Below are positions 16,501 to 55,351 of a stretch of 64,000 nucleotides of DNA, in pieces. A model generated the notes under the pieces. That model searched no databases. It worked only from the letters and a program-made list of their open reading frames with translations, and had not been told where the DNA came from. The translations under genes and the position numbers were made by a program. Source of the stretch: a virus. The stretch's first letter is position 1. Each line of letters begins with the position of its first letter. Location of the stretch: positions 1 to 64,000 of the IMG/VR virus record IMGVR_UViG_3300042934_000426, one strand, 5' to 3'.

Positions 16501-16773
16501 TTGCTTTTTGGCGTAGTATTCTTTCACTTGGTTCAAGTGCCAGCGAAGGTCACTTTCCAGGTTATACGATTGAAATACAATACCACCACCGAACCACTTC
16601 GCACGGTACTTTGTAAGCTTCGGAATTCTCCCATAATCAGCCAGCTTAATTCCCAATGATAGGAAATGCACCACATAGCGGGCGTTTCCGTTAACATCAT
16701 AATTAATTTTATGATAGCCGATTTCCTCACCATCTAAGGTAATGTACTTCTTTGGGTATTTTGCGTTTGACAT
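16495..16773 (-). CDS. Hypothetical early protein
   Basis: RBS-supported ATG at 16773; ends GCG TAG inside the next cassette. Confidence 0.7.
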   Translation of the reverse strand: MSNAKYPKKYITLDGEEIGYHKINYDVNGNARYVVHFLSLGIKLADYGRIPKLTKYRAKWFGGGIVFQSYNLESDLRWHLNQVKEYYAKKQA

Positions 16774-16788
16774 ATTGACCAGCTCCAC

Positions 16789-16877
16789 TTCTCTTTTTAT
16801 TTTTAGCGGGATTTAACCGCTGATTTCCGACGCCCTTCGGAACACGATAAGTTCCGAAGAGTGCCAGCCTATCAGGA
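16789..16877 (-). other. Conserved intergenic RNA hairpin element, copy 2
   Basis: CTGAT...ATCAG basal stem (covaries with TTGAA/TTCAG), then AGCGG..CCGCT. Confidence 0.55.
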
Positions 16878-17303
16878 TTAAATACTTGTGATTCCAGGTA
16901 CACCGTGTTTCTTGCAAAGGACTTCGAATTCCCGTGTGGTTAGGTAATAGTACAGGTCGGATTCTTTCGAGCCTGGTTCACCTTTGTACGTTTCACCACA
17001 ATTTTCGAACCAGCCTTTCATGGTTTGGTGAATCGGGTAGTATTCGTATTGTACGCTGAAGCAAGAAGGAAGCCCTAAAATCCAACTCTTAAAAGCTTCG
17101 TAGCGGTTAGGTGTTTGCTTCTGCTCGTATGGGCTATACCAATTTTTGAATTCGTCGATTACGATTTGTAATTGTGTAGTTACCAGGTTTTCTTCCGTTG
17201 TTTGAATATCATACCCGCTTTCGATTTCTGCTTCGTCTAACATGATGTTCATTACGTGCTCCTGTACGAATCCCTTGAATACCTTTTTTGTTGTGATTGC
17301 CAT
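16878..17303 (-). CDS. Hypothetical early protein
   Basis: RBS-supported ATG at 17303. Confidence 0.7.
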   Translation of the reverse strand: MAITTKKVFKGFVQEHVMNIMLDEAEIESGYDIQTTEENLVTTQLQIVIDEFKNWYSPYEQKQTPNRYEAFKSWILGLPSCFSVQYEYYPIHQTMKGWFENCGETYKGEPGSKESDLYYYLTTREFEVLCKKHGVPGITSI

Positions 17304-17383
17304 TTTCAACCAGCTCCTTAGTTTTTGTTTGGGGCTCTCACCCTCATTACTACCATACATACGGCTTTTATTTTTCTCTACGC
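17304..17383 (-). promoter_or_regulatory. Repeated promoter-hairpin-RBS cassette
   Basis: GCGTAGAGAAAAATAAAAGCCGTATGTATGGTAGTAATGAGGG...GGAGCTGG. Confidence 0.8.
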
Positions 17384-17536
17384 TTTGATTTCTTCGACGA
17401 TTTCTTCCGTTTCAGCATTGCGAATCATGATGGTTTTGTTTTCTTCTTCGTAAACCATTTTTGCAACCCGTCGAGCGGTTTCGATGTCCTCAAATGTTCC
17501 CCAGGTATAAACGTATGTGCAAACTCGATATTTCAT
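17378..17536 (-). CDS. Small hypothetical protein (52 aa, not in the ORF track)
   Basis: MKYRVCTYVYTWG...EEIKA*; GGAGCTGG RBS and own promoter. Confidence 0.65.
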   Translation of the reverse strand: MKYRVCTYVYTWGTFEDIETARRVAKMVYEEENKTIMIRNAETEEIVEEIKA

Positions 17537-17617
17537 TGTGACCAGCTCCTTCGTTACTTTTAGTATAACCGATATTGAACAACTTTGAACAACGTAAATC
17601 CTGGAAAAGCCAACGCA

Positions 17618-18016
17618 TTACGCGTCGGCTCTCTCACAGTACATAATACCTATGCTTCCATCCGCTTCGTGCTGACCAATGTAATACTGACCAGGTAAGG
17701 AAGTGTGTTTGTTCAGGTGAACAGCCAGCTCTTCACAAATGATGTCGTACTTCTCGATGACGCGTTCCAATCCGTTTTTAGTCGGTGCGGAAGAGCCTGT
17801 GATTTCTCGGTTAAAAAGTTCGGTCGCAAATTGCCCGTGTGCTCCGCTGACTATATCCATTGCCCATACCGTATACAACCCTTCTTCGTTTGGTTGTTCG
17901 TCTTCGTCACGCAACCAGTTAATAAATCCGCTTACTTGTAAGTCCATGTTCTTTTGTCCTTCTTTTCCAACGTTGACTAGGTACCACTCTTCGATTAATG
18001 TGTTTAATGATTTCAT
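17618..18016 (-). CDS. Hypothetical early protein
   Basis: Start reassigned to the RBS-supported ATG at 18016. Confidence 0.65.
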   Translation of the reverse strand: MKSLNTLIEEWYLVNVGKEGQKNMDLQVSGFINWLRDEDEQPNEEGLYTVWAMDIVSGAHGQFATELFNREITGSSAPTKNGLERVIEKYDIICEELAVHLNKHTSLPGQYYIGQHEADGSIGIMYCERADA

Positions 18017-18019
18017 GTG

Positions 18020-18115
18020 TTCCAGCTCTCCTTTGATTTGTTTTAGGAGCGGGGGCTGATAGCCAGCACGCTCCCTCATACTTACCATACATACGCCTTT
18101 CATTTTCCTCTACGC
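18020..18115 (-). promoter_or_regulatory. Repeated promoter-hairpin-RBS cassette
   Basis: GCGTAGAGGAAAATGAAAGGCGTATGTATGGTAAGTATGAGGGAGC...GCTCC. Confidence 0.8.
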
Positions 18116-18297
18116 TTATTTATTTCCTCTTTACGCTCGGCTCTTGCTATTGCTATTTCTTGTTCTAATTGGAGCTTCACACTTCGAAGCTCCTTTATGT
18201 CAGCCATTCTAGTACGATTGTTGAGCCGATAAGCAATCGAATGGTTAATTGATTCGATTAATAGGTACTTTTGGCTGTTTGTCAATTCCATTACCAT
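18100..18297 (-). CDS. Small coiled-coil hypothetical protein
   Basis: ORF reads into the next cassette's promoter. Confidence 0.55.
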   Translation of the reverse strand: MVMELTNSQKYLLIESINHSIAYRLNNRTRMADIKELRSVKLQLEQEIAIARAERKEEINKRRGK

Positions 18298-18310
18298 TAC
18301 GTCCTTTCGT

Positions 18311-18991
18311 TTAGAAATGCGGGTCATAGTAGCGTCTAGCACTTCCGAAGCTCACTTTTAAATTACAAGGCGTTTTCCACATCCCTAATTTGGTCTTCCG
18401 AACCGTGTGAGTATTACCATTCGGATTTGAAGTGTATTCATATTCAGCCGTTCCGTCGTGCTCTGTGCCTTTGGTGATTTTCCAATCCATAGATTGAATC
18501 GTAACCGTCTTCCCGCTTGGGCTTACTTTAATGACTTCGTACGGGGCACAATCCGAAAGGTAGTAGCCCGTGGCTTTCATACCCACGGTTACGTCATGTG
18601 GTACGCTTCCTTTCTTCGGTGTCATTTCAATCCAGCCTTCCGAAGAATCCCCGAAGTAGTAATATGTGCCATTGATTCGAATAATATCGCTGGTGCTGAT
18701 AGAACGTCCTTTGAATCCGAAGTGAGATTGCATGACTTCCCTGGACTGTCTTTCTGCTGGTGAATTCGTCAGCTCGTAGAATTTCCAAAGTAGGTTCTCA
18801 TTTGTTTCAGGCTTCGTATAGAATAACACCGCACCGTCAATATTGCTTTCACCGAATACCACTTCGTACGCTTTCATATCGTAGGCGTTGCGGTCTTGCC
18901 CAGCGTGCTCTTCCATAAATTCTAGGCTCATAAATCCGTGTTCTCTTGTCATGCCTTGCTTCACTTGGAATACCGTTACTAATGTTGTCAT
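18311..18991 (-). CDS. YodL-like domain protein with an extra C-terminal domain
   Basis: VFQ...FMSLE...YEVVF...FKGRSISTSDII...YYYFGDS.GW matches the YodL-like pattern. Confidence 0.6.
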   Translation of the reverse strand: MTTLVTVFQVKQGMTREHGFMSLEFMEEHAGQDRNAYDMKAYEVVFGESNIDGAVLFYTKPETNENLLWKFYELTNSPAERQSREVMQSHFGFKGRSISTSDIIRINGTYYYFGDSSEGWIEMTPKKGSVPHDVTVGMKATGYYLSDCAPYEVIKVSPSGKTVTIQSMDWKITKGTEHDGTAEYEYTSNPNGNTHTVRKTKLGMWKTPCNLKVSFGSARRYYDPHF

Positions 18992-19075
18992 GTTTACCAG
19001 CTCCTATTTATTTGTTCTAGCGGTTAGTCACCGCTGAATTCCCCGCCTTCCGAAGAAGGCGAAGTGTTCAACCTA
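18992..19075 (-). other. Conserved intergenic RNA hairpin element, copy 3
   Basis: GGTTGAACA...ATTCAGCGG..CCGCTAGAA...GGAGCTGGTAAACATG. Confidence 0.55.
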
Positions 19076-19303
19076 CTAACCTAGAAATCTTACATCCTTC
19101 CATAGTCTTTCTAGTTGCTTAATTTCCTTTTCATCACTAATCCCTACCCAGCGAACTTGAAAGCCGTCTTCACCACCATATTTGAACCAGGTTTTTTCCG
19201 TGTTAATCATTAATGAGTACGTGCCGTCTACCGTTGTCACTTCGAAGCGAATTCCCTTCGGAAGTTTCGTAACCTCTTGAATCACCATTGTATTTTTCAT
19301 CAT
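19076..19303 (-). CDS. Hypothetical early protein
   Basis: Cassette-driven ORF. Confidence 0.65.
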   Translation of the reverse strand: MMKNTMVIQEVTKLPKGIRFEVTTVDGTYSLMINTEKTWFKYGGEDGFQVRWVGISDEKEIKQLERLWKDVRFLG

Positions 19304-19387
19304 TCTAACCAGCTCCTAGTTTTTTATTGGGGGAGCACCCGCTCCCCTCATTACTACCATACATACGACTTTTGTTTTTCTCTACGC
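19304..19387 (-). promoter_or_regulatory. Repeated promoter-hairpin-RBS cassette
   Basis: GCGTAGAGAAAAACAAAAGTCGTATGTATGGTAGTAATGAGGGGAGC..GCTCCCC. Confidence 0.8.
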
Positions 19388-19651
19388 TTCGATGTAGAAG
19401 TGAACCCGATTACCTAATTCGTTGTTACAGTTGTAGTAAGCGTAAGCGTCGATGTCTTCTTGAAACGTTCGGAAGCCTTCGTTGGTGTGTCGGAATCCTT
19501 CGCTAGTGTAGGCACCTCCAAAGCCATTCCCTAACCACATACCGCCAGGTCTTACGTTCGAAGGAAGCATACAGACGACTAAGGATTCCCCTGACTTCAA
19601 TCTCTTTAACTGGGCTCTTACTTGTGACTTCGTTACCTTTTTTAATTCCAT
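19382..19651 (-). CDS. Hypothetical early protein
   Basis: Cassette-driven; ends GCG TAG in the next cassette. Confidence 0.7.
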   Translation of the reverse strand: MELKKVTKSQVRAQLKRLKSGESLVVCMLPSNVRPGGMWLGNGFGGAYTSEGFRHTNEGFRTFQEDIDAYAYYNCNNELGNRVHFYIEA

Positions 19652-19745
19652 GCTTATCCAGCTCCTTTAGTTGTTTTAGGGGAAGCGCTTCGGAAGCCCT
19701 TCCCCTCATACTTACCATACATACGCCTTTTGTTTTTCTCTACGC
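19652..19745 (-). promoter_or_regulatory. Repeated promoter-hairpin-RBS cassette
   Basis: GCGTAGAGAAAAACAAAAGGCGTATGTATGGTAAGTATGAGGGGAAG..CTTCCCCT. Confidence 0.8.
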
Positions 19746-20411
19746 TTCCTTTTGAGCCTTTTGACGCTCTCGGTATAGTCTCGAAGCTTCTCGGCTGATA
19801 CGCTTACGCTCTTCGTCGGTTAATTTGGCTCGGTAGCGATTGGTGCGTTCACGGGCTAGCTTACGCTCATGCGCTACCTTCTCCCGCTTCGCTCGTTCTC
19901 GGTCTGCCTTCTGTTGGTTCGCCTTCTGTGGGTCTGCATAGTAGGCGTCTAGTCCTCGCTGACGTTTGGCTTCTCCGTTAACAACCTTCGTGCTCTGAAT
20001 CCGTACAATATCCGAAGTCATTAAGTCGTGCATTTTAATCGCTTGCACCGTCTTCCGAAGGGTGTAACATGGTAACCATCCGTCTTTAAAGTCAATAAAG
20101 CCCCGCTCTTCTTCCTCTTCGATTCCCGTACCATAGAAGTCATAGGTAATGACCACGCGCTCACGTAGGTTCTTCCAGGCTTCGAGCAATACGTCATAAG
20201 TCACTTCTTTCATGGTGTCTTCCAGCTCTTCACAATAAAGTTCCACTTCGATTCGGGTCACGTCTTCTAATGGCTTAATCATATGGTGAACTAATTGGTT
20301 CACACTTCCGAAGGATTCGATTGTGTCACGGGTGGCGATAACGTGAAGCTCCGTGCCTGTGTTCAGGTGTACTGTGATAGGGTATTCTCTTTCCATCGTT
20401 AATTCCGTCAT
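19740..20411 (-). CDS. Hypothetical protein with basic helical C-terminus
   Basis: GGAGCTGG RBS; ends GCG TAG. Confidence 0.7.
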   Translation of the reverse strand: MTELTMEREYPITVHLNTGTELHVIATRDTIESFGSVNQLVHHMIKPLEDVTRIEVELYCEELEDTMKEVTYDVLLEAWKNLRERVVITYDFYGTGIEEEEERGFIDFKDGWLPCYTLRKTVQAIKMHDLMTSDIVRIQSTKVVNGEAKRQRGLDAYYADPQKANQQKADRERAKREKVAHERKLARERTNRYRAKLTDEERKRISREASRLYRERQKAQKEA

Positions 20412-20500
20412 GCTGACCAGCTCCCTTTGATTTGTTTGTATTGACGGGTGTACCGTTCACATGAGTAGTATATGGGGGCTTTCGCCCCCTGGTGCTTGTG

Positions 20501-20659
20501 CTACCCAAAAATTTTTGTTTTGCCAATGACATACACGTTTTTGATTTGGTCTTTATAGCGCTCATACCAGGCTTCGAAGTCGTTGTTATTCAGGAATACG
20601 TCGGTGCATTTCATATGTTGGTCGTCCATAAAATTGTAGTGGTATTTAACGGTAATCAT
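20501..20659 (-). CDS. Small hypothetical protein
   Basis: RBS-supported ATG at 20659; promoter with TGAACAA boxes. Confidence 0.6.
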   Translation of the reverse strand: MITVKYHYNFMDDQHMKCTDVFLNNNDFEAWYERYKDQIKNVYVIGKTKIFG

Positions 20660-20770
20660 CTGACCAGCTCCCTTGTAGTTGATACCCTTATTATACACAA
20701 CAATGAACAACTTTAAACAACGCAATAAATGGAAAAAGCCCGCAACCCCTGGGGGCTACGGGCTTCGGTG

Positions 20771-21331
20771 TTATTCGGTAATGTAGGTAAATTTTGCTCT
20801 TGTGAATCCTTTGACACCTTTGAGGTTCTTTTCTGCTTGGTCACGTCCGATTCCACCTGTTACCATGCAATCTGTCTTACTCATGATAACACCCACCATT
20901 CCGAATTCTTTCAAGAAGGAAGTAGACTGAGATAAAGCTTTGTCTTTTTTGGCTTGCGGAAGGTCTTTCCAATTCTCGTTCTTTTCTAGTTGCTGTAGCA
21001 CCGTTAATTTTTTTCCCTTCATAACAGACTTTTCTACAAATTGCACCTTTATAGGGTCGTTGTAATTAGGTATACTTCCGAAGGCTGAATCTAATTCAAA
21101 GCTCCCTACCGCTTCAACGACTTGCTTCCATACGTTCATCGGGAAAGTGGCGTTCTTTACGGGCTTCCATTCGTCTTTGATTTTCTTCATCGTGATAACA
21201 TTAACAAATTGCTTACCGTTTAGCTCACATAGTTTTACGACGCGGTTTTCATACTCATTTACTGAAATCACTTTTACCAATGTTTCCATATCCCATGAGA
21301 ATTCTTTCTTTTCTGTTGTTTTCTTTGTCAT
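20771..21331 (-). CDS. PC4/YdbC-like ssDNA-binding domain protein
   Basis: VVKLCELNGKQFVNV....EWKPVKNATFP..VW resembles the PC4 fold. Confidence 0.5.
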   Translation of the reverse strand: MTKKTTEKKEFSWDMETLVKVISVNEYENRVVKLCELNGKQFVNVITMKKIKDEWKPVKNATFPMNVWKQVVEAVGSFELDSAFGSIPNYNDPIKVQFVEKSVMKGKKLTVLQQLEKNENWKDLPQAKKDKALSQSTSFLKEFGMVGVIMSKTDCMVTGGIGRDQAEKNLKGVKGFTRAKFTYITE

Positions 21332-21429
21332 CCTAACCAGCTCCATTTCGTTTTTGTTTTAGAAGCGAAGTCTTATCGACCCCGCTCCTTCATTACTAGC
21401 ATACATACGCCTTTATTTTTTATCTACGC
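21332..21429 (-). promoter_or_regulatory. Repeated promoter-hairpin-RBS cassette
   Basis: GCGTAGATAAAAAATAAAGGCGTATGTATGCTAGTAATGAAGG. Confidence 0.75.
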
Positions 21430-21804
21430 AAAAGATTGGAAACCGCGAACACCAATAATCTTATCATTCTCGTCACGAATAGCTGTTTCATTCGTTAGGG
21501 GGCTTATCACGTCGGGACGCTTCACATGCTTCGCTACAATATAGGACGCAATGTAAATTGTTCCTTCGACAGGTTCAGGAAGCCCATACACATCTTTGTC
21601 TGTTAGCTTCGCTACAGGAATCGCTAACTCTACGCCTGGAATCAATTCTACTGCTAGGGTTGTGCGCTCATGGTTTGATTCCATTCGAGCGATTTGCCCC
21701 GAAGTCTTGAACGTCAACTTCATTCCATTCGTGTCTATCAGTGTGACGTCGTGCGGGCATAGATTATGGAATTTTACACCTTTAAAATTTGTTGTTTCTG
21801 CCAA
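21424..21804 (-). CDS. Conserved viral hypothetical protein (NLxPH family)
   Basis: NLCPHDV...GLPEP..GTIYIAS..VA...RPDVISP...RDE...IIG; TTG start. Confidence 0.65.
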   Translation of the reverse strand: MAETTNFKGVKFHNLCPHDVTLIDTNGMKLTFKTSGQIARMESNHERTTLAVELIPGVELAIPVAKLTDKDVYGLPEPVEGTIYIASYIVAKHVKRPDVISPLTNETAIRDENDKIIGVRGFQSFA

Positions 21805-21892
21805 ACTAACCAGCTCCATTTCTCTTTTTATGTAAGAAAGCCATTGGCTTCCTCATTATTATCATACATACGCTATTTATTTTTCTCTACGG
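21805..21892 (-). promoter_or_regulatory. Repeated promoter-hairpin-RBS cassette
   Basis: CCGTAGAGAAAAATAAATAGCGTATGTATGATAATAATGAGG. Confidence 0.75.
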
Positions 21893-22406
21893 CTTCGAAA
21901 GAGTGGGTCATAAGCTCTCCACGGGCTTCTATAGCCTTTTGATTAGCTTCTTCAGCGGTTTCGTATGCTCCTAAGTAGACACGCTTTTTATTAATACTTA
22001 CGGAAGCCGTATATTTATCTAGTTTTTTGTTGTAGTAAACACCGCGATAACCTGTGCTATTGTTTGTTCGAAGCTTCGTAAGATTCTGATTGTTTTCTCC
22101 CTGGGTACATATACGAAGATTACTTCGCTTGTTGTTTAGTTTATTGCCGTCAATATGGTCAATTACTAGCTCGTCGGGACAACCCATGATTACTCGGTGT
22201 ACTCTGTACTTATTCCTATGAACGTAGTCTTTATCATGCCTACAATAGGTGTTCATAATGACATAGCCACGTTCATCTATTTGCCAGCTAAAGTCAGCTA
22301 TACCAATAATGCCCAGGTCTTGCGTATCAATAATAAATTCGCCCTTCGAAGTTATAATGTAAGTTATATCTCCTTCGATTCTGAATTGATTTCTCATGTG
22401 TAACAC
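21873..22406 (-). CDS. HNH endonuclease with AP2 DNA-binding domain
   Basis: VHRVIM...IDHIDGNKLNNKRSNLR plus STGYRGV...YLGAYETAEEA. Confidence 0.9.
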   Translation of the reverse strand: MLHMRNQFRIEGDITYIITSKGEFIIDTQDLGIIGIADFSWQIDERGYVIMNTYCRHDKDYVHRNKYRVHRVIMGCPDELVIDHIDGNKLNNKRSNLRICTQGENNQNLTKLRTNNSTGYRGVYYNKKLDKYTASVSINKKRVYLGAYETAEEANQKAIEARGELMTHSFEAVEKNK

Positions 22407-22469
22407 TCCCTTCGGTATATATTGTAAATCTTAGCACCACGGTTTGTAAATACTTTTCTCTACGGTGTC

Positions 22470-22496
22470 ACACACGGGCATACGCCCGCATAGAAT
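22470..22496 (+). promoter_or_regulatory. SigK/SigE-type (mother-cell) promoter
   Basis: AC-N17-CATAGAAT vs SigK consensus AC-N16-18-CATAnnnT. Confidence 0.5.
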
Positions 22497-22527
22497 GTAC
22501 GACAATGAAAGGAAAGGGTTGGTAACA

Positions 22528-22758
22528 GTGGAACAATTACCTAAAATGATTAATTGCCGTCTAAAAGCGGACGATAAAGACCTACAAGAAATGTTAGCGA
22601 AGGCTTCGGATAAAACCGCACGTATTAAGGAACTCATTCGAAAAGGATTAGAAGCCGAAGCCCAACCAAAGGTAAAGGAAATCAAAGCGCCTTCGAAGTC
22701 TTACACGTATTACCAGGGGGACATAAAAGTGGCAAAACCGCTTATACTCGTTCCATAA
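22528..22758 (+). CDS. Ribbon-helix-helix (CopG/ParR-like) DNA-binding protein
   Basis: MINCRL...DKDL..ML...[14 protein letters not shown]. Confidence 0.55.
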
Positions 22759-22824
22759 GTAGCTGTAGCCTTATTTTATCACGATTCGTCAAACTTGTCT
22801 TCCATTGTTGGAAGTTATTCACCT

Positions 22825-22853
22825 TTGATATCTTCTTCGAAGCGGGGTATACT
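22825..22853 (+). promoter_or_regulatory. SigA-type promoter of the SASP gene (overlaps a SigF-like -10)
   Basis: TTGATA-17-TATACT; GGGTATACTA also fits the SigF -10. Confidence 0.55.
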
Positions 22854-22913
22854 AAGTTTAAGCAAGCGGGGAACAACACCCAGCTTGACTTACAACCCAA
22901 AGGAGAAGTGATA

Positions 22914-23105
22914 ATGATGGCACGTTCAAACCAATTAATCGTACCTGGTGTAGAAAACGCATTAAACAACATGAAAGCTGAAATTGCTTCCGAATTCGGG
23001 GTACAATTAGGCGCTGACGCTACAGCTCGTCAAAACGGCTCAGTCGGTGGCGAAATGACAAAGCGTTTAGTGGCATTGGCTCAATCTCAATTAGTAGGCA
23101 AATAA
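22914..23105 (+). CDS. ssp: Alpha/beta-type small acid-soluble spore protein
   Basis: [10 protein letters not shown].[21 protein letters not shown], the canonical SASP signature including the GPR cleavage site EIASE. Confidence 0.95.
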
Positions 23106-23106
23106 G

Positions 23107-23208
23107 GTGTGGCGACTACTGGTTATCTACGCGATACCACTAGTGGTTATAATAGTTGCTTTCTTATCTGATAAATTTTCGAAATGGGACGAATCAAATG
23201 GCTCTTAA
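23107..23208 (+). CDS. Small membrane peptide (33 aa, not in the ORF track)
   Basis: MWRLLVIYAIPLVVIIVAFLSDKFSKWDESNGS, directly after ssp. Confidence 0.4.
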   Translation: MWRLLVIYAIPLVVIIVAFLSDKFSKWDESNGS

Positions 23209-23301
23209 CTGAATATACTATGGATACCAGCTCCCGAACATACATGAACGGGATTTTAGCCCCAGGGATTTCCTGGGGCATTTTTTATAGGTGGTGATAG
23301 C

Positions 23302-23658
23302 ATGAACGCTAATGGGCACGCGATTGTTGGATTGGTCTTCGTCGTAAGTGCAAAAGTAATCGCGCCTGAAGTTGTAGGCGCACAGGAATTCGTCTTTACC
23401 CTATTCGGAAGTTTACTTCCTGATATTGACCATACACGAAGTACATTGGGTCGATTCAATCCCTTCGCCCGATGGATGAAGCATAGAGGAAAAACGCACA
23501 CCCTCATAGGCTCTATTTTACTTTGTATGCCGTTTTTGGTCTTCGGTGGACTTCTACCCTTCGGATTCGTTTTACTTGGCTGTGTCAGCCATTTAGTAGG
23601 TGATAAGCTGTATAGTTGGTTACCACGTAAAAAACCCTTCGCCATTCGTCTATGGTAA
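23302..23658 (+). CDS. YdjM-like metal-dependent membrane hydrolase
   Basis: GH...GSLLPDIDH...HRGKTHTL...SHLVGD. Confidence 0.85.
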   Translation: MNANGHAIVGLVFVVSAKVIAPEVVGAQEFVFTLFGSLLPDIDHTRSTLGRFNPFARWMKHRGKTHTLIGSILLCMPFLVFGGLLPFGFVLLGCVSHLVGDKLYSWLPRKKPFAIRLW

Positions 23659-23699
23659 AGGGTTTTTCTTTTACGAAAAATAATTTTTATCGGACACGC

Positions 23700-23726
23700 A
23701 CACATGGGAAGTGTGCCCATAAAATA
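23700..23726 (+). promoter_or_regulatory. SigK-type promoter
   Basis: AC-N16-CATAAAATA, an exact match to the SigK consensus, ~40 bp upstream of 23766. Confidence 0.6.
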
Positions 23727-23765
23727 CAGGGACGATACACCTAAGATACGAAGGAGCTGAGGAAC

Positions 23766-24224
23766 ATGAATCAAATAAAAACAGTAGGCACATTTCGGGA
23801 GATAGCGACACTAGAAAGAATGTGCCCTGAATTAAACTGGTTTGAGTACGAACAATTAATCGAAGGTCGAAGCTTTACCCGCTGGTATGTCAAAAATCGG
23901 AAAGTCATCAATAAGCTTGCTTTAGCCACTCCCGCTTTTGCTATGACGGTGTTCAAAGTATCTCCGATGTTTTTACTAGGAACGCTATTGCCACCGATTG
24001 CCATTCCTGTAGCGGGGTCGTTCTTCGCTGGGCACGGGGTCATTCTTCTTCATATGCTGATTATCGGTTTTTTAACGCTAGTGGTGACGACGTTCTTGAA
24101 GTTCACAGGTCGCGGGGACTTAGCGCCATTAGTTATGTTTGTGGGTGGGGGTGTCATACTCTATGAAACGTTGGGTCTCTTTAAAGCGATATATACGTCC
24201 GTCGCTACTTTTTTCAATATGTGA
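23766..24224 (+). CDS. Membrane protein with C-terminal SpoIIIAC/AD-like domain
   Basis: MLIIGFLTLVVTTFLKFTGRGDLAPLVMFVGGGVILYETLGLFKAIYTSVATFF resembles the SpoIIIAC pattern. Confidence 0.55.
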   Translation: MNQIKTVGTFREIATLERMCPELNWFEYEQLIEGRSFTRWYVKNRKVINKLALATPAFAMTVFKVSPMFLLGTLLPPIAIPVAGSFFAGHGVILLHMLIIGFLTLVVTTFLKFTGRGDLAPLVMFVGGGVILYETLGLFKAIYTSVATFFNM

Positions 24225-24322
24225 AGACGGGGTACAAAACCGCTTCGTTATTGGCATGATTATCGGCTTTTCTGCTATTACTGCCTGGGTACTCTATTTG
24301 ATACGGGAAGGGGTCTTCTAAC

Positions 24323-24526
24323 ATGCACTTAGAAGCATTAATCATTAAATATACGTTGGGCACGATGTTTCTTGTCGTTACCCTGGTCTTCGGGGTTAAA
24401 ATCATTCTCTTACTATCGACGGTGGCAAAGTTGAAGTTAACGAGCTTTATCGGAAGCCTGGCGGGTACGCCCTGGGACGTTATTGCCCGAACCTTCGAAA
24501 CGGTATTTAAAGGAGCGGTGAAGTAA
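24323..24526 (+). CDS. Small membrane protein
   Basis: Hydrophobic 67 aa; stop overlaps the ATPase start. Confidence 0.6.
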   Translation: MHLEALIIKYTLGTMFLVVTLVFGVKIILLLSTVAKLKLTSFIGSLAGTPWDVIARTFETVFKGAVK

Positions 24527-27051
24527 TGTTATTTAAGACCCTCTTTTATCCGTTGAATCGCAAAAAGCTAGATAGAGCTTCCGAAGAAGGGAAGCTCTAT
24601 CAAATTTTCATTGAAAAAGACGCGAAATTCAAGCCCAGCCAGTACAACAACTTTTTTGACAGTATTTACACCACGTATGACCCGAAAAACCCGCACCGCT
24701 GGCTTACCTTCGAATTCCACGGAACGACGAAGGGAATCGCCCTGTATAGCTGGTTATCGGGCGGAATTCCGCAAGGATTCCTTCAATCGAATATCAACAG
24801 CGTCCACCCGTCGGCTGAAACGATTGCCGTCGAAGACCTAGACAAAAAGGATTACGCCAGCTTCGGAAGGTTATATGGTATGGACGTGAGCTGTGCCACG
24901 CTAGAGCTGGACGGTCACTATCTCTTTAATACGTTACAATCGGACGGGGAACGAGTAGGAGCTGACTTAATGGCTTCGCTTTGTGCGTCGCTCGATAACC
25001 TGGACGATAACGAAGAAGTTGGCGTCCAATTTTTATTGCGTCCTGTCCACTTCCGAAGTCTAAACGTTGCCACCGCTCACTTTGAACTATACAAACGCTT
25101 CGGAAGACGACCAGGTAAGCTTCACTATCCATATGCGAAATATAACCCATACTTAGAAGTTCCGAAGGCAATTCTAGGCTCGCTCCAACATGCCATGGTA
25201 GGAAGTGCGGGTAGCCAGGACGTTCATACCACGATGACATCCATACAAAAGAAGCTCGAAGCGGGGGTGTACTTCGATTTGCTGATTCGGATTGTGAGCG
25301 CCCACCCAACACCAGGTCGTGCGAAGCTTCGGCTGGACACGGTGATAAGCTCATTCGCTCCCGCTACCGATAAAAATAGACTTCGACCGTACTCGAATTA
25401 CCAGGATAAGACGAAGAAGCTCGGCAAGTTCACCTACTATAAGGAAACAGGTCGAACGAAGTTTTTGAAGGACTTCGAAGCCCGTCGGATTCACACGTAC
25501 CCGATTGAGAACTACGTCACCCCTCCCGAACTCGCTACCATGCTCCATTTCCCTTCGGCTGACATTCCTGGGGTCATACGGCTTCGAGCGAAGAAAATGG
25601 CGGTGCCTGACGGAATCCATCAATATAACTCGATTGAAGAAGCCTGGAAAGATAAGGCGATTGTTTTCGGGGTCAGTAATTTCAGAGGAAGGCAAAAGTA
25701 CCTCGCGTTCAAGGACATCAAAATGCTTATGCAACATTTGTACTGCATTGGGGGAACAGGGAGCGGAAAAAGCTACTGGTTGAGTTTCATAGCGTTACAG
25801 GTAAGTAGGCACGCGGGGCTGACGTTCTTCGACGTCAAAGGCGACGTGGTGGACGATTTACTTCGCCACCTTCCGAAGAGCGAATGGGATAGGGTCTTCT
25901 ACATCGACTTAAAGAGCGAAGGCTGGTATCTCCCGTTCAATATCCTTCGTCAACCTGGTATGAGCGTCTATAACCTGGCAACGCTGATTGTGTCTACCTT
26001 CATTAAATGCTTCTCGGACGGCTCGATTAAAGAGCATAGTCAGAACGTCCTTCGTCAAGCGCTGATTGCGGTTATCTCAACTGACCCCGAAGGAAGCTTA
26101 CTAGAAGTCTATCGCATGTTCACAGACGAACACTACTTGGATTTGACGATTTCACGGCTCGAAGCACGGAACGAATACCCTGACGTCCTCAACTATTGGA
26201 AGAACATCTTTAAGAATATGAAGGCTTCGGGACGTAAAGGCGAAGCGGGAGCGATTACCAATAAGCTCGCTATGATTACCCAAAACGAGCGCCCCCGCTA
26301 CACCCTAAGTCAGCGAAAGAACGCACTCGACTTCCGTAAGCTCATGGATGAAAAGAAAATCATCCTGGTCAACTTCTCTATGGGTCAGAACGTAGACGAA
26401 ATTCTCATATTCTTCGGAACCCTGTTTACGAACTTTATCAGCCGTGCGACGTTCAGCCGTGACGATACGCACCGTGACAGCCGTGTTCCTCATTTCTTTA
26501 TCGTCGATGAATTCGAAATGTTTATTCACCAGGATTCGGATATGCGAAAATTTCTCGAAATGGCTCGAAGCTACGGGCTGGGGCTGGGGCTAGCCCATCA
26601 GAACATGGCACAAATAACGAATCCCGCTTTGCTCGGCACGATTAAGGATAACACCTTCAGCCAGGTCAGCTTGCTCGTCGGTGACCAATCCGCTCCATCC
26701 GTCGCCAAAATGTTTCCAGGCGTCGAAGCGGAAGACCTCACCAGCATGATAGAGTACACAGGCTTCGCACGATTCAAGAAGCTCTCCCCGAAGCCATTCA
26801 CCTTCGATAGCCTGGATATGACAGAATACTTCGGAAGTGTGAGCTGGGAAGAGGTCGAGAAGTGGAAAGATTCGTTCAAGCGTCAGCACTACAAGCATAT
26901 GCTAGAGATAAAAGAGGATATAGACGAACGCTACCGCACCGTCGAAGCGAATCAGGTTCAAGAAGGGGATTCCCCTTCGGTCAAGAAAGGGAACGCGACG
27001 GGTAAACTAAAAAGGGGGAAATCACATGGAACGATTCATTCACACACGTAA
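24526..27051 (+). CDS. VirD4/TraG-like (HerA-FtsK superfamily) coupling ATPase
   Basis: HLYCIGGTGSGKS (Walker A), FFDVKGD, PFNIL, FFIVDEF (Walker B), ARSYGLGLGLAHQNMAQI. Confidence 0.88.
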   Translation: MLFKTLFYPLNRKKLDRASEEGKLYQIFIEKDAKFKPSQYNNFFDSIYTTYDPKNPHRWLTFEFHGTTKGIALYSWLSGGIPQGFLQSNINSVHPSAETIAVEDLDKKDYASFGRLYGMDVSCATLELDGHYLFNTLQSDGERVGADLMASLCASLDNLDDNEEVGVQFLLRPVHFRSLNVATAHFELYKRFGRRPGKLHYPYAKYNPYLEVPKAILGSLQHAMVGSAGSQDVHTTMTSIQKKLEAGVYFDLLIRIVSAHPTPGRAKLRLDTVISSFAPATDKNRLRPYSNYQDKTKKLGKFTYYKETGRTKFLKDFEARRIHTYPIENYVTPPELATMLHFPSADIPGVIRLRAKKMAVPDGIHQYNSIEEAWKDKAIVFGVSNFRGRQKYLAFKDIKMLMQHLYCIGGTGSGKSYWLSFIALQVSRHAGLTFFDVKGDVVDDLLRHLPKSEWDRVFYIDLKSEGWYLPFNILRQPGMSVYNLATLIVSTFIKCFSDGSIKEHSQNVLRQALIAVISTDPEGSLLEVYRMFTDEHYLDLTISRLEARNEYPDVLNYWKNIFKNMKASGRKGEAGAITNKLAMITQNERPRYTLSQRKNALDFRKLMDEKKIILVNFSMGQNVDEILIFFGTLFTNFISRATFSRDDTHRDSRVPHFFIVDEFEMFIHQDSDMRKFLEMARSYGLGLGLAHQNMAQITNPALLGTIKDNTFSQVSLLVGDQSAPSVAKMFPGVEAEDLTSMIEYTGFARFKKLSPKPFTFDSLDMTEYFGSVSWEEVEKWKDSFKRQHYKHMLEIKEDIDERYRTVEANQVQEGDSPSVKKGNATGKLKRGKSHGTIHSHT

Positions 27052-27931
27052 GATTTCGAAGTTTCGAAGGAAAGAGCTAGGCAACCCTGAAGAGCATTTG
27101 CACGACCTACTTCAGAAGCCGTTTTTGACAAAGCGAGACAAAGAGGTATTGCTGGCGGTTTATTACCATCGTTGCCTAACCACGGAACAAATAGCGGAAA
27201 TCTTTTTCAAGTACAATACGAAGGGAGAAAAGAATAATCAGTCGAATTTAATTGCCCGAAGACGACTTCGGAAGATGTTTGACGCATACCTTTTGGATAG
27301 GTTCTTCGTGGACGTGGGAGAAGGGAACGGTTCCTCTCCCGCTCATGTTATTTTAGATACGATAGGGGCGAAGGTCGTCGCGGGTCTGCTTAACTTGCCT
27401 ATGAGCGATATCAACTGGCGGTATGAAATGAACGAAGCCCGCCTTCCCTACCTAGAGCATATGGTGAAAATCAATCAGTTCTATGTATACCTACTTCGGA
27501 AGGCTCGAAATACGAAGGGCGAAGTCCTGGGCTTCCGAACCGAAAACCACGTCCGCTACGAATTTAAACATTGGAACGAACGAATTATTTTCAACCCTGA
27601 CGCCTACGGGCAATACTGGCAAGGGGACGAAGGCTTTCATTTCTTCCTAGAGCTGGATAATGGCACGATGTCCCCGAAGACCTTCGAAAAGAAGCACCAG
27701 CGCTATAGTGCTTTTTACGATTCAGGCGAATATCGGAAGCATTATGAGAACTTTCCAATTATCCTAACGGTGACGACGACCGAAGAGCGAGCGAAACAAT
27801 TACGGGATATTATTTACAAGCGGGATAATACGGATATGATATGGCTTTTTGCTTCGTGGGATAAAGTGAAGGTGAATCCGACTTCGACTATATGGCTCGG
27901 AAAAGAGAAAGACCCCGTTAGATTACTCTAA
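27026..27931 (+). CDS. Replication-relaxation (Replic_Relax) family protein
   Basis: N-terminal wHTH LTKRDKEVL...LTTEQIA...ARRRLRKM; PDAYG...FFLELDNGT...K..RY. Confidence 0.88.
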   Translation: MERFIHTRKISKFRRKELGNPEEHLHDLLQKPFLTKRDKEVLLAVYYHRCLTTEQIAEIFFKYNTKGEKNNQSNLIARRRLRKMFDAYLLDRFFVDVGEGNGSSPAHVILDTIGAKVVAGLLNLPMSDINWRYEMNEARLPYLEHMVKINQFYVYLLRKARNTKGEVLGFRTENHVRYEFKHWNERIIFNPDAYGQYWQGDEGFHFFLELDNGTMSPKTFEKKHQRYSAFYDSGEYRKHYENFPIILTVTTTEERAKQLRDIIYKRDNTDMIWLFASWDKVKVNPTSTIWLGKEKDPVRLL

Positions 27932-28295
27932 CGGGTTTTTCTCGAATGACGCACTACTCTTTTGCGTGAATTAGGTAATTGCCGTTTGGTCTTAAAGTTA
28001 TTTCCACCTTTGTCCGACCTTTATCCAACAACCTTTTTACTTCTAATAATGCTTCTTCTTGCTTTTTGTTTTGTTCTGACATTAAATTTTTCCTCCTTCG
28101 CAATTTGATTCCATTATTCTTCTTAGTACTTGGGTCTGCTCTCCCGTTCTAGTAAAACGCTATGCTTTCGAACGAGTAATAACAAGTGCTTCAGCTCGGC
28201 TCCTTCGCTTGGGTTCTCCCAATTATACGAAAAGGGCTTTTCCGATTTCTCTAGCAATACAATGGCTCGCTTCATTTCTTCGATAAGTAGTTGTT

Positions 28296-28541: not shown

Positions 28542-28720
28542 TATTCTCCCGTCCTTTCGATAACAGGTATGCCTACACCACTAAGATAAAGCTCTCTATC
28601 GCCCTTCCAATCGAAGCGGTGGATAGATTGTATTCTTAGTGTTCTGCCGTCTTCTAGTTGTATTTTGTGCCCTATTTCTACAGTAGACCATCTTATTTTC
28701 GCTTTGAATAGTTCTTCCAT
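28541..28720 (-). CDS. Small hypothetical protein (59 aa, not in the ORF track) flanked by 21-bp direct repeats
   Basis: MEELFKAKIRW...PVIERTGE*; TAATG-coupled at both ends. Confidence 0.6.
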   Translation of the reverse strand: MEELFKAKIRWSTVEIGHKIQLEDGRTLRIQSIHRFDWKGDRELYLSGVGIPVIERTGE

Positions 28721-30117
28721 TATTCTCCCGTCCTTTCGATTTTGATAGCTAAACGATACAAGTCTTCTTCGGTCACATCATAGAGCAAAGCTTCAATTAA
28801 TTGCTTCACCGAAGCCCCTGTAGCGTCCATTAGGTTTAATTCGAGCTTCTTTGGTGTTATACGCTTCGGAGGAACGACCACTTCTGCATTAGGTACACAT
28901 TCGGTATCTGATACCCTTAGCCATGTTTTTCTAAAGGCTTTTGCGTCTTCTTCGTCTACGTTTATTTTTAAGGTTTTTATTAGGGGTGTAGTCGGTAACT
29001 TTTCATGAAGCTCTTCGACGCTTATTCCTTTATCATGGGCTTCGATAGTCGCTTCAATGACCTCTTTCGCTATATCTTTCGTGACAATCGGTGTACGGAC
29101 AATTTGGGCTACGTCCTTCGTTACGGCTTTGTCGACCATTTCCTGAAGGTCTATTTTCCCCTTTTTTAACCGCTTGATTTGGCTCGTATACGTACGTACG
29201 GTACCAATGCTTGTCTGCAAGTGGTCAGCCAGTTCTCTTGGTTCCATCGTAGGGTAATGTTCCAGGGCATATCGTACTTTGTCTAACATCGTTTTTCCTT
29301 CTAATTGGATGGGTTTCATAGGGCTACCAGCTCCTTCGTTTTTCTCTATTTCACTTATATGGTAAACGGTGACGGGTGCTTCGTCGATGGATTCTTCTGC
29401 CTGTTCTTCCTGTGGTTTCTTTACAGCCTTAGGAAGCTTAAATATTCCTTCTCCATCAAATTCATGGGCTTCGATTAAACCCTTGGAAAGAGCCAGCTTC
29501 CGAACCTTTTTTCCGACCCGCTTCTCTAAACGGCTTATGTAGCTTTGGCTCAACCCTAATTGGTTGGATAGCTCTAGCTGGGTCAGTTTTCCTTCGTCTT
29601 CGGCTAGCATAAAGTTTTCGAAGATTCGAAATTCTCTATCGGTAAACTTTTCGCGGACAATACCAATTAGCTGACGTATCGTATCTCGTTTCTCTTGTCG
29701 TTCGATATCGTAGCTTGACTTGTCTGTCACCACATCAAGTAAGGTGAGGTCGTTACCATCGAAGTCTACGCTAATCTTGTCCTCTAATAGTGTCACATTT
29801 CGGTGTTTATTCTCCTTCCGAAGTACCATGAGAATTTCGTTGTTCATACAAGTACTAGCGTAGGTAGCAAACTTCCATCCTTTTGTCGGGTCGAACGTAT
29901 TAAAACCTTTCAATAATCCTATACTAGCTATCGAAACTAAATCGTCTTCAGGTAAGCCCGTATTACTGTAGTTTTTCACGATATGACGGGCTAACCCTAA
30001 GTTTTTTCTGAAAATGTTATTCTTAATGTCTTCTTTTCGCTCTAGGTTGGTTTCACTGTAGTAGTCTGCGAATAAGTCTTCGTTCTTCGTCTTTTTCAAG
30101 GTCTGAATACTTATCAC
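28720..30117 (-). CDS. SigE/SigK-like sporulation sigma factor with a ~200-aa C-terminal HTH extension
   Basis: EDDLVSIASIGLLKGFNTFDP..KFATYASTCMNNEILMVLR...DFDGNDLTLLDV; region 4 TQLELSNQLGLSQSYISRLEKR. Confidence 0.9.
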   Translation of the reverse strand: MISIQTLKKTKNEDLFADYYSETNLERKEDIKNNIFRKNLGLARHIVKNYSNTGLPEDDLVSIASIGLLKGFNTFDPTKGWKFATYASTCMNNEILMVLRKENKHRNVTLLEDKISVDFDGNDLTLLDVVTDKSSYDIERQEKRDTIRQLIGIVREKFTDREFRIFENFMLAEDEGKLTQLELSNQLGLSQSYISRLEKRVGKKVRKLALSKGLIEAHEFDGEGIFKLPKAVKKPQEEQAEESIDEAPVTVYHISEIEKNEGAGSPMKPIQLEGKTMLDKVRYALEHYPTMEPRELADHLQTSIGTVRTYTSQIKRLKKGKIDLQEMVDKAVTKDVAQIVRTPIVTKDIAKEVIEATIEAHDKGISVEELHEKLPTTPLIKTLKINVDEEDAKAFRKTWLRVSDTECVPNAEVVVPPKRITPKKLELNLMDATGASVKQLIEALLYDVTEEDLYRLAIKIERTGE

Positions 30118-54461: not shown

Positions 54462-54470
54462 ATGTGACAC

Positions 54471-55273: not shown

Positions 55274-55351
55274 TTCGCCAGCTCCTTTTCACTTAGTATA
55301 CCACAACTTTGACTAAATATGAACAACTTCGTTCAAGTAAAAAGCTGGGTA

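Follow-up and report, generated by a model that had tools for sequence, protein, structure and literature searches.

A probable DNA translocation operon with a predicted sigmaK-type promoter and a SpoIIIAC-family membrane protein in a soil phage

Gene content of the plus-strand block

The window analysed was a 64,000-nt stretch of a soil phage (IMG/VR record IMGVR_UViG_3300042934_000426, positions 1 to 64,000), the complete genome of which (G000) measures 104,950 bp. A single multi-gene plus-strand block was found in the window (22465–27931, +), with a switch of GC and AT skew at the same place; the original prediction of an only plus-strand block holds in this multi-gene sense. The block encodes an RHH-like protein, an alpha/beta-type SASP, a YdjM-like protein, membrane proteins of 152 and 67 aa, an 841-aa ATPase and a Replic_Relax nuclease, and ends at a predicted two-way terminator-like hairpin (27914–27945).

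The RHH-like small protein (22528–22758, +) is putatively DNA-binding, of a ParR-like or relaxosome-accessory-like kind. Its reading frame is open from 22465, orthologues start near 22528/22546, and the true start is probably one of these two positions. Sequence pattern and conserved orthologues uphold its earlier description as an RHH regulator, to which Pfam and PDB searches added no match. Orthologues in three relatives (L002, L004 and L015) each lie directly 3' of an actin-like (ParM-type) gene.

The SASP gene (22908–23105, +; Pfam SASP E 3e-21) was confirmed and shares ~79% DNA identity over 124 nt with SPbeta sspC. It was not found in four related phage genomes and, by this comparison, is a lineage-specific insert, seen only in the soil phage among the genomes compared. 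A sigmaA-like promoter (TTGATA-17-TATACT; 22825–22853, +; 10/12 matches) precedes it, with a TATACTA -10 that recurs at the phage's other vegetative-type promoters, and a predicted terminator-like hairpin with a T-run (23259–23289, +) closes the unit. Contrary to the earlier proposal, the SASP gene is not part of a SigK-controlled unit. Like SPbeta with its sspC and phages with sporulation sigma factors, the soil phage bears host-like sporulation genes, here a SASP and a sigma factor; its SASP promoter is of vegetative type. The next gene (23302–23658, +) encodes a shortened, 118-aa membrane protein, for which the proposed YdjM likeness was borne out (Pfam E 4.5e-19) over profile positions 1–109 of 176; it is kept in L002, L004, L015 and L016.

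Relation to the operon of SPO1 and 0305phi8-36

The cassette is already known as the 'DNA translocation operon' described in 2012 for the Bacillus phages 0305phi8-36 (orf200-207) and SPO1 (gp27.3-29.1) (Pathria et al., 2012; PMC3357382). Gene content and order make it very probable that the block at 22465–27931 is the soil phage's version of this operon. Shared features are a VirB4/VirD4-like ATPase without a membrane anchor, the gene of which runs into that of a MOBC-like nuclease, upstream small membrane proteins, an RHH-like protein, an actin-like protein (in the soil phage's relatives) and inversion of the block against its neighbours near a phage sigma gene; in SPO1 the same gene order and strand inversion adjoin the sigma gene gp28. 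The soil phage differs in its sigmaK-consensus promoter, its SASP insertion and its sequence (~25% identity to SPO1), and in having a SpoIIIAC-family membrane subunit and a YdjM-like protein, neither of which was detected in SPO1.

Gene order in L002, L004 and L015 is actin-like, RHH, YdjM, membrane protein, small membrane protein, ATPase, nuclease. An HNH-AP2 endonuclease gene occupies the place of the leading ParM-type gene in the soil phage, which, as gene comparison indicates, has lost the actin-like gene and gained a self-contained SASP gene. Deletion of the 0305phi8-36 operon left growth unimpaired, and under laboratory conditions the operon can be dispensed with (Pathria et al., 2012; PMC3357382), which is compatible with any conditional role. 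SPO1 gp29.1, which opens the homologous block, is classed as an early, non-essential gene (PMC13401047).

Small membrane proteins

The 152-aa membrane protein (23766–24224, +) begins with a soluble region of ~55 aa; a hydrophobic segment and a variable linker follow, and the C-terminus is a highly conserved two-helix hairpin of the SpoIIIAC/AD family. Alone it scored 22.3 bits against Pfam SpoIIIAC, just under the cut-off of 24, which distant members of its family cleared at 28.4 and 31.5 bits; SPO1 small membrane proteins, taken as a control, scored 8–15. Profile–profile comparison of the family with SpoIIIAC by hhalign gave 94.1% probability, E 1.3e-7 and a score of 43.7, against 11.5 ± 2.1 (maximum 18.2) for 80 column shuffles. 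Given the distance from the shuffles and the scores of the family members, these profile comparisons identify the predicted SpoIIIAC likeness of the C-terminus as specific homology, of which hydrophobic composition is not the cause. The alignment of the hairpin with SpoIIIAC/SpoIIIAD spans 52 columns and takes in the loop motif LK-x2-G-[KR]-G-[DE]-x-A, and an upstream mother-cell-type promoter is common to the phage gene and to these subunits of the SpoIIIA-SpoIIQ mother cell-forespore channel. Unlike them, the phage protein has an N-terminal domain and one more hydrophobic segment in addition to the hairpin, and it is encoded not together with SpoIIIAA in a spoIIIA operon but in a phage operon, beside a VirB4/VirD4-type ATPase.

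The 67-aa membrane protein (24323–24526, +) is encoded with its stop codon overlapping the ATPase start (TAATG). An orthologue was found in L005 (E 1e-8), and ORFs of 63–79 aa occupy the same position in L002, L004 and L015. The small membrane proteins foreseen at this place are therefore conserved in part: for a 60-aa ORF overlapping the 152-aa gene (24139–24321), the orthologue search returned none.

ATPase and nuclease

The 841-aa product (24526–27051, +) was assigned by Pfam and NCBIfam to the soluble VirB4/VirD4-family P-loop ATPases (T4SS-DNA_transf, 29.8 bits; cut-off 20.1). It lacks a hydrophobic N-terminus; a ~360-aa N-terminal domain precedes the C-terminal motor, which contains a helical insert. 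Identity to SPO1 gp27.4 is 24.7% (E 3e-16). In the structure model (pLDDT 84.5), the motor matched the VirB4 C-terminal domain (Z 29.1), TrwB (Z 27.6), the DndH C-domain (Z 27.6), HerA of the Sir2-HerA and DUF4297-HerA defence complexes (Z about 19–21) and FtsK (Z about 18). Like the chromosome pumps SpoIIIE/FtsK, the ATPase falls within the broad FtsK-HerA superfamily, but FtsK is more distant than VirB4/VirD4. As modelled, the C-terminal fold fits VirB4 and VirD4 equally; the predicted ATPase is present, and may be a coupling ATPase or a VirB4-like one.

Small hairpin membrane proteins directly before a ~800-aa two-domain soluble ATPase are also found in the VirB3-VirB4 inner-membrane core of T4SS, and the best full-length Foldseek matches of the phage ATPase were R388 TrwK/VirB4. 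Pfam VirB4 families, however, were undetected, the N-terminal domain match was weak (Z 7.5, Foldseek E 9.6e-4, low-confidence model) and the soil phage is without VirB6, VirB8 and VirB1 equivalents. The lack of VirB4 and mating-pair genes, originally noted for the window, was extended to the complete genome and four relatives, in which AAA_10, VirB4 (CagE_TrbE_VirB) and TrbL/VirB6 were not found.

The Replic_Relax (MOBC-type) nuclease gene (27026–27931, +; Pfam E 2e-27) overlaps the ATPase gene by 26 nt, as had been read from the sequence. Its PD-(D/E)XK set is intact (E173, P191-D192, E209-x-D211, K223) and invariant in an alignment of relatives and SPO1 gp27.3 (E 1.6e-15 to the soil phage protein), and it matched the PHROG 'replication initiation by nicking' (E 3.5e-29). 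The family has been tied to CloDF13 MobC by profile searches, with an N-terminal helix-turn-helix domain reported (Pathria et al., 2012; PMC3357382).

The MOBC mobilisation modules CloDF13 MobB/MobC and pAD1 TraX likewise combine a nickase of restriction-endonuclease fold with a gene for a VirD4-family ATPase. As a mobB/mobC-like module, the cassette would give phage DNA to a plasmid or ICE conjugation channel, or pass it directly between touching cells, and the phage would spread without particles (the biofilm idea of 2012). The MobC link of the nuclease (PMC3357382), the VirB4/VirD4-family gene directly upstream of it and the lack of mating-pair genes in the phage itself agree with such a role. 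The ATPase, however, lacks the transmembrane anchor of coupling proteins, bears a 360-aa soluble N-terminal domain instead and is accompanied by conserved membrane proteins of its own; its carrier is a 105-kb phage of lytic type for which no oriT or helper channel is known, and 100-kb linear genomes with terminal repeats fit single-strand transfer poorly. Mobilisation also accounts for neither the SpoIIIAC-family subunit nor the sigmaK-type promoter described below. We hold it to be improbable.

The DndH and HerA matches, the nuclease encoded alongside and the dispensability of the operon in the laboratory (PMC3357382) would also suit an exclusion or defence device, in which a membrane-held HerA/DndH-like ATPase and the PD-(D/E)XK nuclease attack or expel competing phage or plasmid DNA. 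Against this stand the relaxase-type Replic_Relax family of the nuclease, its reported helix-turn-helix (Pathria et al., 2012; PMC3357382) and the partition-type actin-like and RHH pair that accompanies the cassette, and we consider a defence role very improbable.

Promoters and sigma factor

The sigmaK consensus was searched as AC-N16/17-CATA-N3-TA. Two SigK-consensus promoters had been proposed. One, P2 (AC-N16-CATAAAATA; 23700–23726, +), is a predicted promoter with the exact consensus and a conserved GATACACC box 7 nt after the motif. The other, P1 (AC-N17-CATAGAATG; 22470–22497, +), a candidate upstream of the RHH-like gene, has an imperfect sigmaK -10 without the final A of the consensus and reads equally as a weak sigmaA site (GTCACA-18-TAGAAT). 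A further consensus site, AC-N17-CATATACTA followed by GGTACACC (20466–20493, −), lies upstream of a 223-aa ORF (19740–20411). The full motif occurs four times in the 105-kb genome, P2 included (Markov expectation 5.5 ± 2.6), and two of these sites, P2 and 20466–20493, are usable (intergenic and correctly oriented). The phage's abundant promoter class differs from the sigmaK type.

In operon regulatory DNA the motif was present in five of six related phages (G000, L002, L004, L005 and L015), with 0.002–0.011 occurrences expected per 120 nt in each of the five; in the sixth, the high-GC relative L016, neither the motif nor a SpoIIIAC-like protein was found. For the orthologues of the 152-aa gene in L002, L005 and L015 the motif lies ≤140 nt upstream; in L004 it precedes the operon head. 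By these predictions, membrane protein, ATPase and nickase form one unit, the start of which is a mother-cell sigmaK-type promoter that is kept in relatives.

The SigE/K-like sigma factor placed 0.8 kb away was found 789 nt from the block (28720–30117, −; NCBIfam SigK 1.8e-44, SigE 1.3e-43). Some 18 N-terminal profile positions are missing (the pro-sequence is absent), a C-terminal extension of ~250 aa is present, and identity to two Ammoniphilus sigma genes is 42% and 41%. Phage-encoded sporulation sigma factors were reportedly described by Schwartz et al. in 2022; that of the soil phage is of the SigE/SigK (mother-cell) family. The gene was present in two of five related genomes (G000 and G003, both with the motif) and was not found in G004 (the complete genome of L004), L005 or L015; motif retention thus includes a complete genome without the sigma gene. 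The phage sigma may drive P2.

The same cassette could operate outside sporulation, with P2 serving the pro-less phage sigma in ordinary lytic growth and the nickase and ATPase taking part in phage DNA metabolism: they might prime replication at nicks, attach the DNA to the membrane, or act jointly with the actin-like and RHH pair to segregate replicating genomes. The divergent neighbouring sigma gene in two motif-bearing genomes, the position of the SPO1 block beside gp28, the early listing of gp29.1, the PHROGs name of the nuclease family and the resemblance of the relatives' actin-like and RHH proteins to a ParMR partition pair all point this way. Yet the motif is retained in L004, L005 and L015, where no sigma gene was found, and two usable sites genome-wide, with a different abundant class, argue against the P2 type being a general middle or late promoter of the phage. 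Deletion in 0305phi8-36 caused no growth defect (PMC3357382), and lytic growth leaves the SpoIIIAC-family subunit unexplained. We judge this explanation unlikely.

Possible link to sporulation

The best explanation as a whole, with a probability of about 0.38, is a translocation operon with mother-cell-type expression that aids spore carriage. The nickase would bind phage DNA and cut it at a specific site; the ATPase, probably a ring and membrane-held via the small proteins, would pump the nicked DNA across. The cells concerned would be sporulating ones, the sigma factor would be of mother-cell type and come either from the host or, as the pro-less copy, from the phage, and the outcome would be better odds of the phage genome being carried in the spore. 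From anchoring and pumping to timing and destination, these steps, and with them spore loading, are what we infer from the genes and promoter. The chances of mother-cell-type expression are even, and a contribution of the cassette to spore carriage is rather doubtful. Two premises of the spore-loading proposal gained strength, the SpoIIIAC homology and a sigmaK-consensus promoter kept in five of six phages; the separate SASP unit, the sigma gene in two of five genomes and the imperfect SigK site weaken the others. A role of the cassette in bringing phage DNA into spores is testable but unproven.

SigmaK acts late, after engulfment, a hard time for DNA to be imported into the forespore and completed there, and the DNA would have two membranes to cross. 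P2 could also be driven during growth by the SigE/K-like sigma that the phage encodes. Chromosomal homologues of the ATPase (about 25% identity, nearly full length) occur in Saccharibacteria, where a nuclease homologue was not detected; these bacteria are not known as endospore formers, and the homologues count against a sporulation link. The early listing of gp29.1 and the SPO1 membrane proteins, which are not SpoIIIAC-like, indicate that the pump is not tied to sporulation everywhere.

Cultured-phage matches to the ATPase and nuclease were all Bacillus phages, and the nearest bacterial records were the spore formers Ammoniphilus and Brevibacillus. SPO1, which bears the homologous operon, forms virospores, and spore entrapment has been tied to Spo0A boxes and phage-acquired host-derived segregation sequences (PMC12991052). 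Virospore entrapment of lytic Bacillus phages, for which no phage-encoded pump is known, is the proposed biological setting. A YodL-like gene and three clustered Spo0A boxes are also present in the soil phage.

Genome setting and operon layout

The window covers the initial 64 kb of a virus genome that is complete at 104,950 bp, carries direct terminal repeats and was recovered from a soil metagenome. Its phage genes include large terminase, DNA polymerase, primase-helicase and ribonucleotide reductase, and nearly all lie on the minus strand. Gene calls were checked with Pfam, PHROGs and NCBIfam. The original prediction had taken the block at 22465-27931 to be the only plus-strand block, and this was borne out for multi-gene stretches: no other occurs in the window, and both GC and AT skew switch sign there. 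Four of its gene calls (SASP, YdjM-like, VirD4/HerA-kind ATPase and Replic_Relax) were backed by the three databases. The alpha/beta SASP matched PF00269 at 75.5 bits (cut-off 22, E 3e-21) and the shortened YdjM-like membrane protein scored E 4.5e-19; the nuclease gene shares a 26-nt overlap with the ATPase gene. The proposed RHH regulator stood in part: the protein was kept in relatives and has the expected strand-helix-helix pattern, but it had no match in Pfam and nothing significant when its profile was compared with the PDB. Its true start is probably 22528 or 22546. The predicted lack of VirB4 or mating-pair genes was extended from the window to the complete genome and to four related phage genomes, in which the VirB4, AAA_10 and VirB6 families were likewise absent.

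Relationship to the phage DNA translocation operon

A block of this kind was named the 'DNA translocation operon' in SPO1 and 0305phi8-36 (PMC3357382, 2012), and its parts were given as a MOBC-like relaxase, an anchor-less VirD4-like ATPase, membrane proteins and an actin-like protein. Deletion of the operon caused no growth defect, and its authors suggested DNA transfer from cell to cell in biofilms (PMC3357382). The ATPase and nuclease analyzed here matched SPO1 gp27.4 (blastp E 3e-16) and gp27.3 (E 1.6e-15), respectively. SPO1 gp27.3-29.1 and 0305phi8-36 orf200-207 share with the present block an identical order, in which the ATPase gene is followed directly by the overlapping nuclease gene. 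In SPO1, a run of small genes (gp29.1, 27.9-27.5) ends with gp27.4 and gp27.3; the block has the opposite orientation to the genes around it and adjoins gp27 and the sigma gene gp28. Distant homologues of the ATPase and nuclease in cultured phages came from Bacillus phages only (50,697 phage records searched); closer relatives were viral-metagenome loci with 61-72% identical ATPases.

Synteny was read at 6 related loci, with 57 membrane-protein and 45 ATPase relatives known. The gene order in relatives was actin-like (ALP_N + MreB-like_C), RHH-like, YdjM-like, ~150-aa membrane protein, 63-79-aa membrane protein, ATPase and nuclease. Whereas the SPO1/0305phi8-36 operon has an actin-like (MreB/ParM-type) gene, no match to the actin-like gene was obtained anywhere in the present phage's complete genome. 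Because three related phage loci (L002, L004 and L015) have this gene, we take it to be lost here. The position of the relatives' ParM-type first gene is held by an HNH + AP2 homing-endonuclease-like gene (21873-22406, minus strand), which suggests replacement by a mobile endonuclease. The block also differs from a ParMRC partition system, whose actin-like ATPase has no counterpart in this phage and whose RHH fold is unsupported here by Pfam or PDB.

The SASP gene, which has its own promoter (TTGATA-17-TATACT) and terminator, was found in the present phage alone when compared with four related phage genomes, and the neighbouring sigma gene (28720-30117, minus strand) was carried by 2 of 5 genomes. 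Both are therefore cassette accessories and not core; they were dropped from the core argument together with the first 'SigK' site (22470-22497, upstream of the RHH-like gene). The cassette itself is real, conserved and described before, and what is new is the present variant. Two apparent ties of this lineage to mother-cell biology, both at sequence level, are added here: a SpoIIIAC-family subunit and a conserved promoter.

Nuclease and ATPase

The nuclease matched Pfam PF13814 (Replic_Relax) at 96.8 bits (cut-off 25.3, E 2e-27); its profile had no match in the PDB at sequence level. Residues of the PD-(D/E)XK site (E173, PD191-192, E209, D211 and K223) were invariant across relatives and SPO1 gp27.3, so the enzyme is probably active. 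We know of no nic site for phage Replic_Relax or MOBC members.

The 841-aa ATPase scored 29.8 bits on T4SS-DNA_transf (Pfam cut-off 20.1) and E 2e-14 on conju_CD1115; its profile gave P-loop-level matches only when compared with the PDB at sequence level. A confident AlphaFold model (pLDDT 84.5) was built from 23 relatives. The C-terminal motor (residues 359-771) matched the VirB4 C-terminal domain (4ag5; Z 29.1, rmsd 3.0, 336 aligned) and TrwB (Z 27.6, rmsd 4.3, 379 aligned), and also the DndH C-domain (Z 27.6), DotL (25.1) and HerA (24), with FtsK lower (Z ~18). A defence role for the cassette, with which the DndH match could be reconciled, is less likely. With the whole ATPase as Foldseek query, R388 TrwK/VirB4 headed the matches.

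The motor fold is common to the type IV coupling proteins (VirD4/TraG/TrwB), but their N-terminal transmembrane anchor is missing: the N-terminus is charged, not hydrophobic, and the first ~360 aa form a soluble alpha/beta domain in the model. A lack of transmembrane anchor was likewise noted for 0305phi8-36 orf201 (PMC3357382). VirB4, too, has a soluble N-terminal domain; the VirB4 sequence families (CagE_TrbE_VirB and AAA_10, Pfam) gave no match. Folded alone, the N-terminal domain was poorly modelled (pLDDT 53); its top Foldseek match was TrwK (E 9.6e-4), similarity to VirB4 was weak (VIA Z 7.5 over 226 residues), and middling matches to BBE-like oxidase domains (Z 8-10) were also obtained. 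Since the modelled fold fits both VirB4 and TrwB, the anchor is absent and the N-terminal VirB4 match is weak, 'VirB4/VirD4-family' is the honest label. Of the predicted 'VirD4-like coupling ATPase', the TrwB-fold motor and the T4SS-DNA_transf score above cut-off stood; 'coupling protein' is not established, as the VirB4 C-domain fits equally. Mobilisation through a resident conjugation channel would accord with a conjugation-type motor and nuclease in a genome that lacks mating-pair families, and is less likely for an ATPase without a coupling protein's anchor.

Homologues of the ATPase, about 25% identical over nearly its full length and with no nuclease homologue detected, were present in Saccharibacteria chromosomes, so the family is not confined to spore formers. 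Restriction of the cassette to phages of spore formers holds for cultured carriers, all Bacillus phages, but not for the ATPase family. In Saccharibacteria/Patescibacteria MAG contigs (L007-L014; for example L009, 6890-10521), the homologue lies between dnaK and ruvX/dnaA in a conserved chromosomal neighbourhood, and after it come genes for a 400-aa PilM-like actin-fold protein and for a 509-aa protein of no known family. The nearest bacterial copies were in Ammoniphilus and Brevibacillus. On a scaffold of Brevibacillus sp. H7 (L006, 7001-7608), all that remains is residues 384-526 of the ATPase and the N-terminal 53 residues of the nuclease, probably a decayed remnant in a bacterial chromosome.

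Comparison of the 152-aa membrane protein with SpoIIIAC

The 152-aa membrane protein (23766-24224), whose C-terminus had been likened to SpoIIIAC, scored 22.3 bits on Pfam SpoIIIAC (PF06686), under the gathering cut-off of 24. Its orthologues scored 23.0, 24.6, 28.4 and 31.5 bits, so that the distant members (28.4 and 31.5) passed the cut-off, and genuine SpoIIIAC/AD proteins scored 28-77 bits. Because the single-protein score was sub-threshold and control genomes of non-spore formers also gave sub-threshold PF06686 matches, a profile-profile test was built from alignments of the phage family (54 members) and of SpoIIIAC from Bacilli genomes (26 members). The two families aligned by hhalign with 94.1% probability (E 1.3e-7, score 43.7, 52 columns), compared with 87.8% for SpoIIIAC against SpoIIIAD. 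Eighty column-shuffled versions and one reversed version scored 11-18 (shuffle maximum 18.2), and SPO1 small membrane proteins used as controls scored 8-15; neither the 152-aa family nor SpoIIIAC resembled gp29.1 or gp27.5-27.8 of SPO1. The Ammoniphilus copy is named 'SpoIIIAC/SpoIIIAD family' by NCBI, and the ESM Atlas placed the 152-aa protein beside SpoIIIAC clusters. An exhaustive profile search of 1.84 billion proteins returned a small family of 23 representatives; no canonical SpoIIIAC reached significance across the library. Judged by the profile comparison, the homology of the 152-aa hairpin to SpoIIIAC is real, and the predicted resemblance was upheld. In the SpoIIIA-SpoIIQ (A-Q) channel, SpoIIIAC is encoded in the spoIIIA operon, whereas the 152-aa gene lies in a phage operon.

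Promoters and the sigma gene

The B. subtilis sigmaK consensus is AC, 16-17 nt, CATA-N3-TA. Two such promoters had been predicted; the second (P2, 23700-23726, plus strand) was an exact match (AC-N16-CATAAAATA) conserved in relatives, and the first missed the last consensus position and is ambiguous. P2 lies between the YdjM-like gene and the 152-aa gene, 40 nt before the start codon of the latter. In L002, L005 and L015 the identical motif was found no more than 140 nt ahead of the orthologous gene; in L002 and L005 the locus had no other such site on that strand. In L004 it stood at the operon head, before the actin-like gene. The flanking DNA has diverged, and the probability that any one placement arose by chance is roughly 0.002-0.03. 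Four full motifs occurred in the genome compared with 5.5 +/- 2.6 expected, so the motif is not a general or main phage promoter. Two of the four were usable, P2 and a second site (20466-20493, minus strand) that precedes a 223-aa ORF (19740-20411, minus strand) with an acidic N-terminal half, a Lys/Arg-rich C-terminal tail and no family match.

SigE was rejected as a reader of P2: its -35 heptamer, which should stand 14 nt upstream, is absent in the window and L002. SigmaA was also rejected: the -10 is TAAAAT-like, yet the -35 matches at no more than 3 of 6 positions.

The identity of the predicted SigE/K-like sigma was confirmed, with SigK and SigE models scoring equally (about 1e-44); only 2 of 5 genomes carry it. 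The match begins about 18 positions into these models, so the protein lacks a pro-sequence; it has a ~250-aa C-terminal extension. The main rival to a sporulation role is that this pro-less sigma fires P2 in ordinary infection and that the cassette serves phage DNA metabolism. L004, however, is part of a complete genome that has no sigma gene and keeps the motif, an argument that P2-type sites are readable by a mother-cell sigma of the host. In the L002 sigma orthologue (10400-11590, minus strand), the extension holds a second helix-turn-helix (HTH_23, E 4e-10).

Proposed role in sporulating cells

By homology, the nuclease would make a site-specific nick in DNA, and the ring ATPase would move DNA. 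The small membrane proteins, conserved and translationally coupled, would be the obvious anchors for the anchor-less ATPase. Action of the cassette in sporulating cells is pointed to by the mother-cell-type promoter and the SpoIIIAC-family subunit, by the fact that cultured carriers are Bacillus phages only, by the nearest bacterial copies, which belong to Ammoniphilus and Brevibacillus, and by the virospores that SPO1 forms (PMC12991052). Forespore loading, as originally predicted, would be the most specific form of the sporulation idea. Here a lytic-type phage would have a mother-cell-expressed DNA export machine, the SpoIIIAC-family subunit entering or imitating the SpoIIIA-SpoIIQ platform while motor and nickase at the engulfing membrane drive phage DNA into the forespore; we give this a probability of roughly 0.15. 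Real difficulties for it are that sigmaK acts late, that DNA would have to pass two membranes and that SPO1 gp29.1 is listed as an early gene.

How genomes of non-integrating lytic phages enter endospores is an old question. In the summary of PMC12991052, entrapment was tied to two features of phage genomes, Spo0A boxes and segregation sequences of host origin, and a phage-encoded pump was shown in no case. The cassette supplies concrete candidate genes, laboratory-dispensable and, among cultured phages, carried only by those of Bacillus; the homologous operon in tractable SPO1 makes the spore-entry idea testable. Forespore pumping, if true, would give phages a route to 'virospores' that is active and encoded by the virus itself. 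Should the link to sporulation fail, the cassette would still amount to a minimal VirB4/VirD4-plus-nickase machine that has small membrane subunits of its own.

Other sequence features

The abundant phage promoter class differs from the sigmaK motif and consists of GCGTAGAGAAAA, about 12 nt and CGTATGTATG, followed by ATGAGGG. Eight clear copies were located on the minus strand (16042-21819 and 52677-60938), before small ORFs and the helicase gene. Its -35 part resembles the SPO1 late -35 box CGTTAGA, and a variant lies opposite the first 'SigK' site in the 22407-22527 spacer, before the HNH-AP2 gene. The palindrome CTTCCGAAG / CTTCGGAAG recurs throughout the window, in spacers and within genes; a copy in the ATPase gene (24571-24601) is the core of a hairpin with a 12-bp stem. 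Spo0A boxes (TGTCGAA) showed no overall enrichment in the window (13 compared with 9.7 expected); the only local cluster that stands out comprises three perfect boxes within 61 bp (37652-37712), in the spacer upstream of a minus-strand gene (37122-37634). Positions 18311-18991 (minus strand) encode a 226-aa protein with a domain that resembles YodL (27.2 bits in Pfam, cut-off 24). In B. subtilis, YodL modifies cell shape during sporulation, so this may be a further host-like sporulation gene in the phage.
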